From contig JBCCXZ010000010.1 of assembly GCA_039190745.1 (NCBI GenBank), positions 15,161-79,160 on the forward strand: a stretch of DNA of 64,000 nt, written 5' to 3'. The translations under genes were made by a program, and so were the position numbers. The notes below the pieces were generated by a model. That model was given only the letters and a program-made list of their open reading frames with translations, had not been told where the DNA came from and made no database searches. Positions 4,914 to 57,525 of the stretch are shown here, piece by piece. The DNA comes from Planctomycetota bacterium. Lineage in GTDB: Bacteria; Planctomycetota; Planctomycetia; Pirellulales; Lacipirellulaceae. Within the stretch, counting starts at the first letter, position 1; each line of letters starts with the position of its first letter.

Positions 4914-6152
4914 ATGAAGCGACGTGTTGTCGTCACAGGCGTCGGCGCCGTGACCGGCTTGAGCTGCAAGGTGGAAGACCTGTGGCAGAAAGTGCTGGCC
5001 GGTAAGAGCGGCGTCCACAAGATCGAACACTTCGACACGACCGACCACAAGGTGGACTTCGCCGGCGAGGTCCTCAACTGGTCGGCCGACGGGTACGTCA
5101 CCCCCAAAGAGGCAAAGCGGCTCGACCGCTTCGTGCAGTTCGGGCTTGTGTCGGCGATCGACGCGGTGACCGACAGCGGGCTCGACTTCGAGAAGGAAGA
5201 CGTCACCCGGTGCGGGGCCATGGTCGGCTCGGGCATCGGGGGGCTGAACGAGATCGAAGAGCAGGAGCGTCGGTTGATCCACAAGGGTCCCGACAAGGTT
5301 TCGGCGTTCACGATCCCCAAGCTGATGCTCAACGCGGCGAGCGGGCACGTCTCGATCCGCTACGGCCTGAGGGGCCCGAACCACGCGATCGCGACCGCCT
5401 GCGCCAGCGCCACCAACGCGATGGCCGACGCCTTCCGGGCGATCCAGCACAACGACGCCGACGTGATGATCACCGGCGGAAGCGAGGCGGCCCTGACGCC
5501 GATCGGGTTGTCGGGCTTTGCCAACATGAAGGCCCTCTCCACGCGGAGCGACGCCCCGCAAGAGGCGAGCCGGCCGTTCGACGCCGACCGCGACGGGTTC
5601 GTCCTCTCCGAGGGCGCGGGCATCCTGGTGTTCGAAGAACTCGAGCACGCCCAGAAGCGCGGCGCCAACATCTACGGCGAGGTGCTCGGCGTGGGCGCCA
5701 GCGCCGACGCGGGGCACATCACGCAGCCCGATTCCCACGGCACCGGCGCCGCGGCGGCGATGGCGGGGTCGCTGAAAGACGCGGGGATCAACCCCGACGC
5801 CATCGACTACGTGAACGCCCACGGCACGAGCACGCCGCTGGGCGACAAGGCGGAGACGACCGCCATCAAGCGTGTGTTCGAGGACCACGCCTACCAGATG
5901 AACGTCTCGAGCACCAAGAGCCACCTCGGCCACCTGCTGGGGGCGAGCGGCGGCGTCGAGGCGATCTTCTCGCTGCTAGCGATACGCGACGGCGTCTGCC
6001 CGCCGACGATCAACCTCGAGACGCCCGACCCCGAGTGCGACCTCAACTACACGCCCAACACGCCGCAGGAGCGGTCGCTGGAGCGGGTGATGAGCAACAG
6101 CTTCGGCTTCGGCGGGCACAACGCGACGATTGTGCTTGGGAAGCTCAGCTGA
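4914..6152 (+). CDS. fabF: Beta-ketoacyl-ACP synthase II
   Basis: TACAS, NAHGTST, KSHLGHLLGA (intact Cys-His-His), SNSFGFGGHN. Confidence 0.97.
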   Translation: MKRRVVVTGVGAVTGLSCKVEDLWQKVLAGKSGVHKIEHFDTTDHKVDFAGEVLNWSADGYVTPKEAKRLDRFVQFGLVSAIDAVTDSGLDFEKEDVTRCGAMVGSGIGGLNEIEEQERRLIHKGPDKVSAFTIPKLMLNAASGHVSIRYGLRGPNHAIATACASATNAMADAFRAIQHNDADVMITGGSEAALTPIGLSGFANMKALSTRSDAPQEASRPFDADRDGFVLSEGAGILVFEELEHAQKRGANIYGEVLGVGASADAGHITQPDSHGTGAAAAMAGSLKDAGINPDAIDYVNAHGTSTPLGDKAETTAIKRVFEDHAYQMNVSSTKSHLGHLLGASGGVEAIFSLLAIRDGVCPPTINLETPDPECDLNYTPNTPQERSLERVMSNSFGFGGHNATIVLGKLS

Positions 6153-6263
6153 TTGCGGAGTTCGGAATCGCCTGGGTGAAGCGCGCCCTTCAGGGACATA
6201 TCTAGCCAGAGCCGTTCCCTGTCTTCTGAGCTGCAGCAAGCCTTCGTCGCTTTGACCGTTTTC

Positions 6264-6584
6264 TTAGGAAGCAGACTCTCGCACTGCGTTGAGGATGTCC
6301 GACACCGGCAACTCGCCTTTAGTGTTGGCCGACTTGCTCCACACTACCTCCTGCCAGGTGTCAGGAGATTTGCGCGACTCGGACCGCTGCAACAAGTACT
6401 CGCGATCGCGACCGTCGAAGACGACCCTAAGTCGCACGCCTCCACATCGCATTGTAACGCTCCAAGAGCCGAAAGACTCGTAGGAGTATGTGTGCGCGCA
6501 GAGCTGAGCTGGTAGTCCCTTCAGTGCATCGCACAGAGTCGACATTTCCTGAAAGTGCCGAGTGGGATAGTCCAGTGCATCCAT
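6264..6584 (-). CDS. Small hypothetical protein (106 aa), atypical codon usage
   Basis: MDALDYPTRHFQEMSTLC...YSYESFGSWSVTMRCGGVRLRVVFDGRDREYLLQ; lower-GC look; the longer 238-aa track ORF runs through repeats and overlaps the toxin. Confidence 0.55.
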   Translation of the reverse strand: MDALDYPTRHFQEMSTLCDALKGLPAQLCAHTYSYESFGSWSVTMRCGGVRLRVVFDGRDREYLLQRSESRKSPDTWQEVVWSKSANTKGELPVSDILNAVRESAS

Positions 6585-6638
6585 CGAGAGTGCTTGGGCT
6601 GATCGGTTAGTTATTGGTGGGGAACAGACCAGGGGTGG

Positions 6639-6700
6639 CACCGACTGTCGGCCGCGAACAGAGCTGCCTCCGAACGAACTCTGTCGGCCGATTGTCGGTG
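6639..6700. repeat. Imperfect inverted repeat, possibly a degenerate REP-like element
   Basis: CACCGACTGTCGGCCGCGAACAGAG...CTCTGTCGGCCGATTGTCGGTG, preceded by GGGGTGG as in the adjacent REP family. Confidence 0.5.
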
Positions 6701-6751
6701 TGCGCAGCGCAGGAGGCAATCCGGCTAGCCCTATGCCACGAACATGCTCAC

Positions 6752-6818
6752 GGGTGGCACTGGCGTCTCGCCAGTGCTTTCTTGCGGGTTCTGCACTGGC
6801 AAGATGCCAGTGCCACCC
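6752..6818. repeat. REP doublet (REPIN-like), family A copy 1
   Basis: GGGTGGCACTGGCGTCTCGCCAGTGC + 15-nt spacer TTTCTTGCGGGTTCT + GCACTGGCAAGATGCCAGTGCCACCC; each arm is GTGG plus a hairpin. Confidence 0.9.
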
Positions 6819-6846
6819 AGAAGAGACACTTCGCAGCTTCCACGGG

Positions 6847-7176
6847 CTAAGGCTCAGCCAACTCCTCAGCTTGCAGAGGCGGTTGCCCATGACCTCGGAT
6901 GCGGAGGATGGTGACCTCATCGTCTTCGACCAGGTAGACGGCAAGGTAGGTGTTGCCTTGGGTCGTCTTGAATGGAGCACTGCGTAACCCCCGCCTCAGC
7001 CACGGTTCTTCTAACGCGGGGCCGTAGATCATGGGGTTCTCAGCTAGCCTCGCCTTCATCGCCTCGAACGCATCCTCCCACCGGAGTGCACCTTCCAACG
7101 ACCTCTGAGCGATGTAATCAAACTGCTCTTCGAAATCTTGCGCCGCGGCAGGGTGGATGCGGACGGCGTAGCTCAC
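6847..7176 (-). CDS. RelE/ParE family type II toxin
   Basis: MSYAVRIHPAAAQDFEEQFDYIAQRS...LAENP...AVYLVEDDEVTILRIRGHGQ; GTGA overlap with upstream small gene. Confidence 0.85.
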   Translation of the reverse strand: MSYAVRIHPAAAQDFEEQFDYIAQRSLEGALRWEDAFEAMKARLAENPMIYGPALEEPWLRRGLRSAPFKTTQGNTYLAVYLVEDDEVTILRIRGHGQPPLQAEELAEP

Positions 7177-7406
7177 TTGCCGCCTTCTGCGCGGGCCGCA
7201 CGCCTTGCGGCTAAAAACTCGTCGACCGGCACGCCCCGTTCGCCGGCGTCGTAGGAAGCGAGCCGCTCTCGGAGAACCGCGATCTCGGCGGGGTCCACTT
7301 CCTTCCACTGTCGGAAGATGTCGTCGAGGGTGAGTTGGTCGCCGTGCTGCGCCGCGAGGCGTCTGGCGAACTCGGTGAATCCCTCAATTTGCTCGGTGAT
7401 CGTCAT
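7173..7406 (-). CDS. Putative antitoxin (77 aa)
   Basis: Small acidic ORF translationally coupled to the ParE-like toxin; C-terminal LASYDAGERGVPVDEFLA typical of such partners. Confidence 0.75.
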   Translation of the reverse strand: MTITEQIEGFTEFARRLAAQHGDQLTLDDIFRQWKEVDPAEIAVLRERLASYDAGERGVPVDEFLAARRAARAEGGK

Positions 7407-7459
7407 GCAGTGAAGGATAACACCGAACCCATTAGAGGGTCAAAATAAGCCGTAATGAC

Positions 7460-7526
7460 GGGTGGCACTGGCGTCTCGCCAGTGCAGAACCCTCAGCAAA
7501 GCACTGGCAAGATGCCAGTGCCACCC
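7460..7526. repeat. REP doublet (REPIN-like), family A copy 2
   Basis: Arms identical to 6752-6818; 15-nt spacer AGAACCCTCAGCAAA. Confidence 0.9.
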
Positions 7527-7655
7527 AGCCATCCTACGGCGTGCCTGGTTGGGGCCGCCGCCCCCCTGCTAGCACCCCGCCGTTCGGCGTTGTGACGCCC
7601 TTGCGCCGCTTCTATACTCCTCGCCCCTTATTTGGCGCCACGTGAGGAGTGCGGT

Positions 7656-8903
7656 ATGCGAGTTCGAACCACAGCGATGTCCGCCCTGTTGATGCTGTCC
7701 GCGGCGACCGCTTCCGCGCAGTTCCCCCCATCCCAACCTGGGGCGAGCAACTGGCGTTCGGCGACCGACAACGCTGCTGGTCCCGGCAACTCACCCTTCG
7801 CGCAGCCGGCTCCGCAACAAGCGACGCAGCCGGGCAGGCAGGCCGCCGCGCCGCCGCAGCAACAGCCGCCGCAGCCCACGCGGGCCCGCGTGACGAAGGG
7901 CTCCGGCCAGTTGCCCAACGAGCACGGGCAGGTGTGGCGCGACTACGACATCACGCCCTACACGCTCCGCGTGCAGAACGCGTCGCAGCCGGAGCAGGCG
8001 ATCGTCGACTGGATTCTCCGCGAGACCGGCTACGAGGCGTGGCACTCCAAGCCGCTGGGCCTGTTGAGCGCCGACACCAAGACGCTCCGAGTATACCACA
8101 CGCCGCAGATGCAGTCGATTGTCGCCGACATCGTTGACCGCTTTGTGAACAGCCGCGCCGAGAGCCACAGTTTTGGGCTGCGGATTGTGACCGTCGATAA
8201 CCCAAACTGGCGTGCCCGGGCGCTGCCGTTGATGACGCCTATCCCCGTGCAGTCGCCGGGCGTGCAGGGGTGGATCCTCGCGAAGGAAGACGCGGCGTTG
8301 ATGATGGCCGAGATGCGCCGCCGGGGCGACTACCGCGAGCACAACCCGCCGCACCAGATGGTGCTCAACGGCGAGTCGCTGGTGGTCTCTTCGATGCGGA
8401 ACCGCTCGTACACGAAGGGCGTGATCCGGACGCAGGCGGCCTGGCCCGGTTATCAGCCGGAGTTGGGCCAGCTCGAAGAAGGGTTCTCGCTGGAGTTCAG
8501 CCCGCTGATGTCGCTCGACTCGCGGACCACCGACGGGGTGGTGAAAGTGCGGCTGGCGCAGGTGGAGAAGATGCTTCCGGTGAAGCTGGAGGTGGCGAGC
8601 ACGGTGGCGCCCAATCAGCGGACCGAGGTGCAGGTGCCTCAGATGACGCAGGTGCAGGTGCACGAGCGTTTCCGGTGGCCGACCGACCAAGTGTTGCTCT
8701 TGAGCATGGGCGTGGTGGCGACGCCGGGGCCGGCGAAGCCGAACATGCTGACCGACGTGGTGCCGATGCTAAACACGGCCCCGCGGGCCGACGCGCTGCT
8801 GTTCGTGGAGAGCAAGGGCCCGGTGGCCCCGCCGACCGCCGGCGGCGTGAGCCCCGCGGTGACGGCCAGCCGGCCGGAGCAGACCTACCACGGGCGGTAC
8901 TAA
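7656..8903 (+). CDS. Exported hypothetical protein with possible secretin-like C-terminal domain
   Basis: GAGGAG RBS, signal peptide (ATASA-Q), P/Q-rich linker, HQMVLNGE...GFSLEFSPLMSLD segment reminiscent of secretin beta domains. Confidence 0.6.
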   Translation: MRVRTTAMSALLMLSAATASAQFPPSQPGASNWRSATDNAAGPGNSPFAQPAPQQATQPGRQAAAPPQQQPPQPTRARVTKGSGQLPNEHGQVWRDYDITPYTLRVQNASQPEQAIVDWILRETGYEAWHSKPLGLLSADTKTLRVYHTPQMQSIVADIVDRFVNSRAESHSFGLRIVTVDNPNWRARALPLMTPIPVQSPGVQGWILAKEDAALMMAEMRRRGDYREHNPPHQMVLNGESLVVSSMRNRSYTKGVIRTQAAWPGYQPELGQLEEGFSLEFSPLMSLDSRTTDGVVKVRLAQVEKMLPVKLEVASTVAPNQRTEVQVPQMTQVQVHERFRWPTDQVLLLSMGVVATPGPAKPNMLTDVVPMLNTAPRADALLFVESKGPVAPPTAGGVSPAVTASRPEQTYHGRY

Positions 8904-8917
8904 GCGCAAGTTCTATT

Positions 8918-8990
8918 GGTGCTATGCCCACGCTCGCGTGGGCATGGCCAATCGTGGTTCTCATGCCCACGCGAGCGTGGGCATGGCACC
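8918..8990. repeat. REP doublet (REPIN-like), family B
   Basis: GGTGCTATGCCCACGCTCGCGTGGGCATG + 15-nt spacer + CATGCCCACGCGAGCGTGGGCATGGCACC. Confidence 0.88.
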
Positions 8991-27521: not shown

Positions 27522-27926
27522 ATGCCAGACGTCAAGCCAGAAGAGTTGTTGTACGCCAAGACGCACGAGTGGGTGTCGATCAGCGAGGAGGGCGGCTCCA
27601 AGGTCGCGACGCTCGGCATCTCCGCCTTCGCGGTCGAGGCACTCACCGACCTCGTGTTCATCGAGCTGCCGCAGGTCGGCAAGCAGGTCGAGAAGAGCGA
27701 GCCCTTCTGCGAGGTAGAGTCGGTCAAGGCAGTGAGCGACATCTACTCGCCGGTCGACGGCGAAGTGATCGCGGTGAACGAATCACTGCCCAACGAACTC
27801 GAGATCCTCGGCGATGACCCGTACGAAAAAGGCTGGATCGCCAAGATCAAGATCAGCGACGATTCCGGCCTGGCCGACATGCTCGACCACGCGGCCTACC
27901 AGAAGCAGTGTGAAGAGGAAAGTTAA
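27522..27926 (+). CDS. gcvH: Glycine cleavage system H protein
   Basis: THEWV, EVESVKAVSDIYSPVDG lipoyl-Lys motif, DPYEKGW. Confidence 0.97.
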   Translation: MPDVKPEELLYAKTHEWVSISEEGGSKVATLGISAFAVEALTDLVFIELPQVGKQVEKSEPFCEVESVKAVSDIYSPVDGEVIAVNESLPNELEILGDDPYEKGWIAKIKISDDSGLADMLDHAAYQKQCEEES

Positions 27927-28052
27927 ATCCGAACGGCGTAATGACAAAGCCCGAGCGGGCTGAACAGAGTCCTTCATCGCCGTCAACGAAGTCCCGCCAA
28001 CAACCCCCCGCCCGAAACATTCGGATTCCGTCATCCGGAATCCGTCGTCACT
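27927..28052. repeat. Degenerate short-period inverted repeat in gcvH-gcvPA spacer
   Basis: TCCGAACGGCGTAATGACAAAGCCCGAG ... ATTCGGATTCCGTC ATCCGGAATCCGTC GTC (14-nt period). Confidence 0.45.
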
Positions 28053-28057
28053 TTCTT

Positions 28058-29434
<1,377 letters not shown>

Positions 29435-38866: not shown

Positions 38867-39226
38867 CTAACGCGCACACCGTCCCTCGCAAGAGTCTGAG
38901 CATCGCGCGCCGTTCTTCTTAGCGAGCATTGCCTTGGCCAACAGATCCTCGGCACGCTTCCGCTTGGCATGAGCCCGCGCCCGGCAGAGCAGGCACGGCA
39001 TCCGCACCAACCCGCCGCAACCCCCGCACCGCTCGGGCAAGTAGCTCAGCCCGTCGCGGCCGACGTGCTGCTCACCCGGCTCGCGGCCGTATAGACCACG
39101 CGCACCGCTGGCGACCTGGGCCACCGTTCCACGGCTGACGCCCACGCTGCGGGCGATCGCCCGTTGTGAGTGCCCGCCGTCGTCCAGCAGCTTGCGGACT
39201 TCTTTGATCTTCTCGAGTGGCAGCAT
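38867..39226 (-). CDS. Small HTH + CxxC/CxxC Zn-finger protein
   Basis: SQRAIARSVGVSRGTV HTH; RCGGCGGLVRMPCLLC. Confidence 0.8.
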   Translation of the reverse strand: MLPLEKIKEVRKLLDDGGHSQRAIARSVGVSRGTVAQVASGARGLYGREPGEQHVGRDGLSYLPERCGGCGGLVRMPCLLCRARAHAKRKRAEDLLAKAMLAKKNGARCSDSCEGRCAR

Positions 39227-52413: not shown

Positions 52414-52598
52414 AGGAACACTAATCAGCACTAATCTTCACTAATCCGGATTAGCGTCGATCAGCGCAGTTCGTAGTTCGTAGGATGGGTGCTCGCACCC
52501 ATCGATGCCTAACCCGATACTTCCGAGATGATGGGTGCAAGCACCCATCCTACGTTTCTAATCCGGATTAGCGTCGATTAGCGAAGATCAGTGTTCCT
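52414..52598. repeat. Decamer-period palindromic repeat (CACTAATC units) interrupted by a REP doublet
   Basis: AGGAACACTAATC...GATCAGTGTTCCT termini; CTAATCCGGATTAGCGTCGAT at both 52441 and 52558. Confidence 0.75.
52479..52554. repeat. REP doublet (GTAG type), family C copy 1
   Basis: CGTAGGATGGGTGCTCGCACCCATC + 26-nt spacer + GATGGGTGCAAGCACCCATCCTACG. Confidence 0.92.
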
Positions 52599-52645
52599 AT
52601 CCTTCTTCTTGGTCTTGGAATCGGTTCAAGCGTAAGGGATTCGCA

Positions 52646-57449: not shown

Positions 57450-57525
57450 CGTAGGATGGGTGCTCGCACCCATCACTTCAGGGTTTACAGATGAGGCATC
57501 GATGGGTGCAAGCACCCATCCTACG
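57450..57525. repeat. REP doublet (GTAG type), family C copy 2
   Basis: Arms identical to 52479-52554; 26-nt spacer ACTTCAGGGTTTACAGATGAGGCATC. Confidence 0.92.

Follow-up and report, generated by a model that had tools for sequence, protein, structure and literature searches.

The elements described here are closest to REPINs and BIMEs (REP doublets forming hairpins, and bacterial interspersed mosaic elements), in which, according to the accessible parts of the papers on them, two repetitive extragenic palindromic (REP) hairpins stand inverted to each other in extragenic DNA, with heads of the GT[AG]G type on their outer sides and a variable spacer in between (Bertels and Rainey, 2011, PMC3116915; Ton-Hoang, 2012, PMC3333891; Di Nocera, 2013, PMC3733652; Corneloup, 2021, PMC8266576). 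In a 64-kb stretch of a Lacipirellulaceae genome (Planctomycetota; assembly GCA_039190745.1, contig JBCCXZ010000010.1, positions 15,161 to 79,160; hereafter the window), two such doublets, termed W1 and W2, share identical and co-oriented arms and carry spacers that agree with each other only as reverse complements. The same literature, in the parts available, distinguishes doublet orientations (TT-AA versus AA-TT; HH, TT and HT) and spacer types, and describes no spacer inverted against fixed arms; in particular, the accessible text of PMC3116915 and PMC3337134 makes no mention of a spacer 'flip'. No paper joining REPINs with spacer inversion was found in the literature searched, and the arm sequences of the family were in none of the relevant main texts searched, supplements lying outside that search.

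Inversion of a hairpin loop between fixed arms has been described in other settings. Template-switch inversions following the Ripley model (PMC8604942, PMC8794818) resemble W1, as far as the accessible sections of these papers go, in the perfect repeat abutting the loop, the kept loop length, the unchanged outer arms and the occurrence of homogenised arms in the family. Compared with those cases, W1 has a longer loop (15 versus 2-8 nt) and a shorter perfect repeat (8 bp), it belongs to a mobile repeat and not to a gene, and its event is recognised from paralogues rather than from an ancestor-descendant pair. In the small inversions of plastid genomes (Kelchner and Wendel, 1996, and Catalano, 2009, as cited in PMC12371153), a loop of 4-50 bp is inverted between fixed stems in non-coding DNA, in an apparently neutral and recurrent manner according to the passages available. 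These belong to another genome and replication system, and recurrence, that is, a true flip-flop, is documented there (PMC12371153), whereas for W1 the data suggest a single event.

Spacer or loop inversion and REP doublets are each already known; what is new is their combination, together with the Planctomycetota REP family itself. Parvovirus terminal hairpins occur in flip and flop forms, T-shaped structures with two small hairpins in an outer stem that are mutually reverse complementary, the small hairpins being swapped via hairpin transfer at the end of a linear genome. In W1, by contrast, the hairpins stay in place and only the linker is inverted, at a chromosomal site. Invertase switches of the Hin, Gin and Fim type likewise hold a segment between inverted repeats in two orientations. 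W1 differs from them in that no recombinase gene lies near it, an open reading frame (ORF) with nothing but an HTH_7 domain being 32 kb away, and in that a 15-bp segment is far too short.

Two doublets with identical arms

W1 (71 nt, 6750-6820) and W2 (71 nt, 7458-7528) are the only doublets of this type, here called family A, in the window, and both are intergenic. Read on the + strand, W1 begins with the flank AC and the outer stem GGGTG (6752-6756), followed by the alpha arm (6757-6777, +; GCACTGGC-G-TCT-C-GCCAGTGC), a perfect 9-bp hairpin with a G.C closing pair at 6765/6769, and by the 15-nt spacer TTTCTTGCGGGTTCT (6778-6792). This spacer is the inverted segment, its orientation being opposite to that of W2 and of a related doublet in another genome, L079. 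On its other side stand the beta arm (6793-6813, +; GCACTGGC-A-AGA-T-GCCAGTGC), again a perfect 9-bp hairpin with an A.T closing pair at 6801/6805, the outer stem CACCC (6814-6818) and the flank AG. The inner half-stems of the two arms, GCCAGTGC at 6770-6777 and GCACTGGC at 6793-6800, form a perfect inverted repeat of 8 bp, immediately adjoining the spacer. W2 has the same layout, with its alpha arm at 7465-7485, its spacer AGAACCCTCAGCAAA at 7486-7500 and its beta arm at 7501-7521.

Direct reading and repeat finding show that the 28 nt on either side of the spacer (left block ACGGGTGGCACTGGCGTCTCGCCAGTGC, right block GCACTGGCAAGATGCCAGTGCCACCCAG, + strand) are 100% the same in W1 and W2, so that arms and flanks agree at 56/56 and 4/4 positions. 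The 21-nt arms each consist of a 9-bp perfect stem and a 3-nt loop, and the loops, TCT on the left and AGA on the right, read alike in either orientation; the asymmetry of the arms consequently lies in the loop-closing pair only (G.C left, A.T right; 4 bases) and in the 2-nt flanks. A previous sequence-only reading had argued that inversion of the whole element would have swapped the arm variants, and this is correct, since the reverse complement would show ATCTT on the left, GAGAC on the right and CT..GT as flanks.

W1 and W2 are head-to-head, GTGG-tagged REP hairpin doublets of the REPIN/BIME type. Both arms carry the tetranucleotide GTGG on their outer side, just ahead of CACTGGC..., and the elements display short palindromic stem-loops, a tetranucleotide head and an inverted pair which can fold, together with its spacer, into one hairpin. 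The rule that such heads read GT[AG]G was reportedly set out by Nunvar in 2010. A precedent for the GTGG head is the GTAG-20 family of Opitutus terrae, as given in the accessible part of PMC3733652, and REP 'HH' dimers are described, in the available portions of several papers, as extragenic inverted pairs with outer heads (PMC3733652, PMC3116915, PMC3337134, PMC3333891, PMC8266576). The Y and Z REPs of E. coli are, in the same portions, heterodimer partners, as alpha and beta are here.

The full inverted repeat around the spacer extends over 26 bp with 2 mismatches, and 67 nt of the doublet can form, on either strand, a single long hairpin (about -29 to -30 kcal/mol, z about -7) whose 15-nt loop is the spacer. 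In W1 and W2, which have identical stems, this long hairpin is the minimum-energy fold, its energy of about -29 kcal/mol comparing with -22 when the arms fold as two hairpins. An Rfam scan of 6000-8000 (E<=1) returned only sub-threshold look-alikes of microRNA hairpins, the best of them with 33.6 bits against a gathering score of 90, and a known RNA family was accordingly rejected. About 50 nt upstream of W1 lies a degenerate, doublet-like palindrome (6633-6702; -24.4 kcal/mol, z -3.6), with a family-A head, GGGTGGCAC, and a hairpin body, CACCGACTGTCGGCCG ... CGGCCGATTGTCGGTG, that differs from family A.

A pattern scan of a collection of species-representative genomes returned at least 123 stretches with family loci (designated by L and a number), the source genome of the window not being among them; all family-wide counts given here and below are among the matches listed. 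Canonical loops (GTCTC, GAGAC, ATCTT, AAGAT) or one-off variants of them occur in 99 of the 123 loci, and 92 of those 99 are, going by their record labels, metagenome-assembled genomes (MAGs) of Planctomycetota, including Pirellulales, Lacipirellulaceae, Thermoguttaceae, Planctomycetaceae and others. Canonical family REPs, one full doublet included, were also seen on MAG contigs labelled Saprospiraceae, beta proteobacterium and Bacteroidetes (L052, L071 and L123); either these contigs are planctomycete ones placed in the wrong bin, or the family may be more widely distributed. Several MAGs hold many family loci, CBDDGV01 among them.

A regular expression recovered 73 doublets and 69 singlets in the 123 loci together with stretch 6001-8200 of the window. 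Sixty-three doublets have the outer GTG...CAC blocks; coded by closing pair (a for G.C, b for A.T), they comprise 25 ab, 12 ba, 14 aa, 10 bb and 2 unclassified. The outer block GGGTG is present in 28, and CACCC in 32, of the 33 heterotypic doublets other than those of the window. In many lineages, the b arm has a different and internally compensated stem (CACGGGC..GCCCGTG, also CACAGGC..GCCTGTG). Stem position 5/17 covaries within arms (T-A, G-C, A-T), with Watson-Crick pairs in 120/126 cases within arms versus 78/126 between them, which indicates that alpha and beta are conserved as hairpins in their own right, enclosed by a short outer stem. A further comparison of G.T with A.C mismatches, intended as a strand test (2 versus 11), is not used as evidence, given that all 11 A.C pairs fall on one beta-arm position beside the spacer and are probably one inherited variant.

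The arms can be relied upon to mark orientation, since many Planctomycetota genomes retain alpha and beta as distinct hairpins. The flanks point in the same direction: AC before the element is found in 1, and AG after it in 3, of the 33 other heterotypic doublets, and the rarity of AC..AG in the family argues that W1 and W2 are direct copies of one 71-nt unit and not inverted copies.

Spacer polarity and arm orientation

Compared directly, the spacers of W1 and W2 are identical at 1/15 positions, and as reverse complements at 12/15. When spacer 1 was shuffled with its composition kept and the better of the two orientations was taken, 12/15 was reached by 8 of 20000 shuffles, and the gapped score by 27 of 20000. 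The observation from which the analysis departed, namely co-oriented arms with the same flanks around spacers matching at 12/15 as reverse complements, is thereby borne out by direct reading and repeat finding. The closest relative among the loci is L079, from a Lacipirellulaceae MAG, in which alpha is followed by beta with the spacer AGACCCCGCCAGAAA in the W2 orientation; the reverse complement of the W1 spacer matches it at 13/15. W2 therefore has the orientation found in L079, which is also the one favoured across the family.

This family-wide preference is seen in composition as well as in spacer similarity. In 37 heterotypic doublets read from alpha to beta, the spacer holds more A than T in 25, equal numbers in 4 and fewer in 8. 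Similarly, the six bases after the beta' hairpin (the beta arm read on the opposite strand) are richer in T than those after alpha in 23 of the 37, equally rich in 8 and less rich in 6. No doublet departs further from either trend than W1, for which the T comparison stands at 5 against 0; these family-wide counts are not phylogenetically independent. Among 102 comparable pairs from 41 heterotypic doublets, 6 have significantly similar spacers, defined as a similarity matched by no more than 4 of 2000 shuffles. Four of these are concordant with arm orientation (L001/L038, the two L026 doublets, L072/L073 and L083/L084), and the 2 discordant ones, W1/W2 and W1/L079, both contain W1. Spacer polarity in the family thus usually follows arm orientation.

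Taken together, four lines agree in suggesting, at the level of sequence comparison, that the spacer and not the arms is the odd part of W1. The sequence-only reading had proposed that the spacer inverts independently of the arms in a flip-flop. The first part of this proposal is upheld by L079, with its alpha-beta arms and W2-type spacer. The flip-flop is not, as W1 is the only discordant element among those compared and the polarity of the family tracks the arms, which points to a rare single event.

The 15-nt spacer does not appear as a free-standing repeat in the window, where the matches are the two spacers and one 2-mismatch match inside an ORF, with 1.3 expected by chance; among the 123 loci, only L079 matches it. 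L079 was considered as an ortholog of the W1 locus and set aside: a tblastx alignment seemed to enter the flank, but the nucleotide alignment ends at the element, and the flank encodes an Rce1-like protein. A locus from a MAG labelled uncultured Planctomycetaceae (L019) is syntenic with 27599-28417 of the window (gcvH-gcvP; about 79% nucleotide identity in the best block) and carries a family doublet in the gcvH-gcvP intergenic spacer, where the window has none. Its use as an empty-site comparison was abandoned, the intergenic DNA being too diverged to define the insertion ends.

A second family of GTAG-tagged REP doublets, family C, has two copies in the window. Copy 1 (52479-52554) reads CGTAGGATGGGTGCTCGCACCCATC, a 26-nt spacer and GATGGGTGCAAGCACCCATCCTACG, and copy 2 (57450-57525) has the same arms on the + strand, so that the arms are identical and co-oriented (left loop CTCG, right loop CAAG). 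The spacers agree at 4/26 positions directly and at 15/26 as reverse complements, with an identical terminal 7-mer; 15/26 was reached by 20 of 20000 shuffles, and the gapped score by 3351 of 20000, which is not significant. Family C is suggestive of a second discordance between arms and spacer, and flips would not be very rare in this genome if it is real.

Copy 1 of family C is part of a larger structure (52414-52599), comprising a 42-nt direct repeat (52441-52482 and 52558-52599; 83% identical, spacing 117), three CACTAATC units spaced by 10 nt (52419-52453) and a 41-nt inverted repeat that spans the doublet. Copy 2 is free of the direct repeat, of the CACTAATC units and of the 41-nt inverted repeat. 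A third family is represented by a single-copy doublet at 8918-8990 (arms GGTGCTATGCCCACGCTCGCGTGGGCATG and CATGCCCACGCGAGCGTGGGCATGGCACC, 15-nt spacer; -43.7 kcal/mol, z -10.8), which follows directly after the stop of the ORF at 7632-8903.

Origin of the W1 spacer orientation

We consider it probable, at roughly 0.6, that W1 carries one derived spacer inversion of the inverted-repeat type, probably produced by replication template switching. W1 and W2 would originally have been co-oriented 71-nt units with a spacer reading AGAAC..AAA from alpha to beta, and the central segment of W1 would later have been inverted in place, the inversion being bounded by the perfect 8-bp inverted repeats GCCAGTGC/GCACTGGC, that is, the inner half-stems of both REP hairpins. 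In such a process the nascent strand would jump to the opposite strand within one inner half-stem, copy the spacer and jump back within the second; alternatively, recombination between the half-stems in an extruded hairpin or cruciform could give the same product. Since the closing-pair bases just outside are not swapped, both breakpoints or switch points would have to lie inside 6770-6777 and 6793-6800, and breakpoints within these inner half-stems would leave the arm-specific closing pairs and the flanks untouched. We infer in this way the direction of change, with W1 as the derived form, as well as the in-place origin and the molecular mechanism.

Several observations are in line with this reading. 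Spacer length is kept (15 and 15 nt), and arm homogenisation, the companion product of template switching, is frequent in the family, 24 of the 63 doublets being aa or bb. In yeast, according to the available part of PMC8604942, arm homogenisation and spacer inversion both arise when the polymerase switches template from one short inverted repeat to the other; loop-only inversions are reported for rRNA hairpins, bacterial ones included, in the corresponding part of PMC8794818; and hairpins facilitate small inversions of 4-50 bp in plastomes, as stated in the section consulted of PMC12371153.

Other points weigh against a single template-switch inversion. No orthologous pre-inversion locus was found among the family loci, the flanks of L079 being unrelated to those of W1, and the direction of change accordingly rests on one outgroup element and on composition trends that are not independent. 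After inversion 3/15 spacer differences remain, and the W1 spacer is nearer to that of L079 (2 differences) than to that of W2 (3), which means that W1 and W2 may not be each other's nearest relatives. As to size, rRNA loop inversions are mostly of 4 nt and at most of 7-8 in the accessible part of PMC8794818, against 15 nt in W1, and the strictly perfect repeat of 8 bp is shorter than in published cases. Switch points evenly spread over the 26-bp arms would, moreover, mostly swap the closing pairs too. Finally, the discordance in family C, if real, would imply that such events are commoner here than a 'rare accident'.

The family is probably served by a REP-associated tyrosine transposase (RAYT) of the Y1/HUH type. 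Among 377 stop-free segments of the family loci, one has a Y1_Tnp match (L055; E 1.7e-6), with an HUH motif. Its ORF (2-595, +) belongs to a Planctomycetota MAG and has a family REP about 170 nt downstream of it, the REPs of the locus being at 402 and 739. Its relatives are of about 180 aa, several of them from Planctomycetota and two named REP-associated tyrosine transposase in their source; the L055 ORF diverges from them after 'DPIW' and is without their C-terminal catalytic-Tyr region, so that this RAYT-like copy looks disrupted, judging from the sequence. The link between the family and a RAYT is consistent with these observations but not established by them.

Among the rival explanations, it is unlikely that W1 was inserted, or wholly inverted, as beta'-spacer-alpha' and that short-patch gene conversion or template switching, with W2 (708 bp away) or other copies as donor, subsequently restored the alpha-beta order of its arms, so that the arms and not the spacer changed. 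The reverse complement of L079 does align to W1 over 70 nt with 6 mismatches, 4 of them in closing pairs and 2 in the spacer, the AC flank being shared; furthermore, closing-pair states reassort in the family (14 aa and 10 bb of 63) and chimeric arms exist, the left arm of L067 being an example. Arm conversion would, however, require two separate tracts, each covering an arm centre and halting before the non-homologous spacer, and no conversion tract would reach the AC..AG flanks, which match W2 directly and are seldom seen in the family. A single inversion of the spacer is the more parsimonious account. We hold it to be quite unlikely that the RAYT of the family catalyses the inversion itself, cleaving and rejoining on either side of the inverted REP (iREP) and within the linker, on both strands, and flipping the spacer back and forth. 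TnpA-REP of E. coli cuts on both sides of iREP and within linkers on both strands, as described in the available parts of PMC3333891 and PMC8266576, a RAYT-like family exists in Planctomycetota with one broken copy adjoining a family REP, and family C may show the same discordance. Against this, no RAYT gene was found among the 58 ORFs or segments scanned in the window, the parts of the REPIN/RAYT literature at hand describe no inversion activity, and W1 is the sole discordant element among the testable ones; nothing in the data requires RAYT-catalysed flipping.

The sequence-only reading had also considered a strand-polarised assembly of doublets. Under such a model, or one of piecewise assembly, the strand of replication or transcription would decide how the alpha and beta REPs are set around a target already present, which becomes the spacer and whose orientation would be free. 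Arms that are far better conserved than spacers, and the existence of all four arm combinations, would fit with this, but one contig (CBDDGV010000001.1) has alpha-beta and beta-alpha doublets (L042 and L043) no more than 7 kb apart, and homotypic doublets occur often, which speaks against strand-polarised assembly. The spacer 15-mer is, besides, not an independent repeat, its polarity tracks the arms and 4/6 related pairs are concordant, and we regard assembly of this kind as very unlikely. It is highly improbable that the spacers are unrelated and the 12/15 match a coincidence: although they are short and compositionally complementary (T/G-rich versus A/C-rich), only 8/20000 shuffles attain that value, and L079, from another genome, reaches 13/15 in the same relative orientation. 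Equally improbable is an artefact of assembly or amplification, in which a chimeric read or a mis-resolved repeat would have flipped one loop. Palindromes do provoke template-switch chimeras during amplification, yet the perfect repeat beside the loop is only 8 bp, which should be far under the usual assembly k-mer sizes, and the W1 spacer is not a copy of that of W2 (3 differences) and is nearer to L079, so that a distinct sequence would have to be invented.

Genomic surroundings and significance

Between W1 and W2 lies a gene for a ParE-family toxin (6847-7176, -; PF05016 ParE_toxin, E 8.1e-13; no NCBIfam match), together with a 77-aa ORF (7173-7406, -) which overlaps the start of parE by 4 nt, has no Pfam or NCBIfam match and is, by position only, a putative antitoxin. 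W1 stands 27 nt beyond the parE stop, and W2 upstream of a promoter-like site on the - strand (7443-7414). A comparable arrangement occurs in L116 (301-890), where two doublets 519 nt apart have a small YbaB/EbfC gene between them, like the window pair around the parE cassette. It would seem, then, that doublets flank small genes because they reside between genes, and not because they form a composite element. The window is planctomycete chromosomal DNA, and its other genes include DUF1559 with an N-methyl motif, DUF1573 and the housekeeping genes ruvB, fabD, fabF, nusA and infB. The window ORFs scanned include none with a recombinase catalytic domain. At 38870-39226 (-), between two small ORFs without an assignment, a 119-aa ORF has a resolvase-type HTH_7 match only (E 4e-6), with no catalytic domain, and may be the remnant of a mobile element.

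On the strand running from beta' to alpha', the beta' hairpin is usually followed directly by a T-rich tract, and the last stem base is often T (G.T pair). The corresponding T-tracts in the window are at 6778-6783 in W1 and 7495-7500 in W2, that of W1 standing behind the alpha hairpin, on the other strand. A consensus scan for intrinsic terminators gave 0 terminator-like sites in 6100-7750, and the idea of a terminator rests on T-tract polarity only. On this basis, it is conceivable, but in our view very doubtful, that spacers are recurrently invertible here by a hairpin-driven or RAYT-assisted exchange of inner half-stems and that the flip is functional, acting as a terminator-direction switch beside the toxin-antitoxin cassette. 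The flip of W1 would put TTTCTT on the + strand behind the alpha hairpin, so that it would no longer follow the parE stop on the - strand, and the T-tract would then face transcripts that enter from the side of fabF and run towards the toxin gene. If this were true, the doublet would be a minimal, invertase-free switch, and the case of family C would fit a raised flip rate in this genome.

With the single derived inversion as the preferred reading, W1 offers a natural example of hairpin-loop inversion in a REP doublet, in which the non-identical arms serve as built-in orientation markers. In alignments of REPIN populations from which a replication history is to be deduced, a flipped spacer passes for numerous substitutions, and divergence would be overestimated or one family taken for several. 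Conversely, scoring arm type against spacer orientation could gauge the frequency of template switching at palindromes in vivo. REP sequences are usually lineage-specific. Unlike those of REPINs and BIMEs, however, the REP sequence of W1 and W2 is conserved across MAGs of several family- and order-level groups of Planctomycetota, and the family stands out for its GTGG-headed alpha/beta heterodimers, kept across many Planctomycetota MAGs, and for the RAYT-like gene family associated with it.

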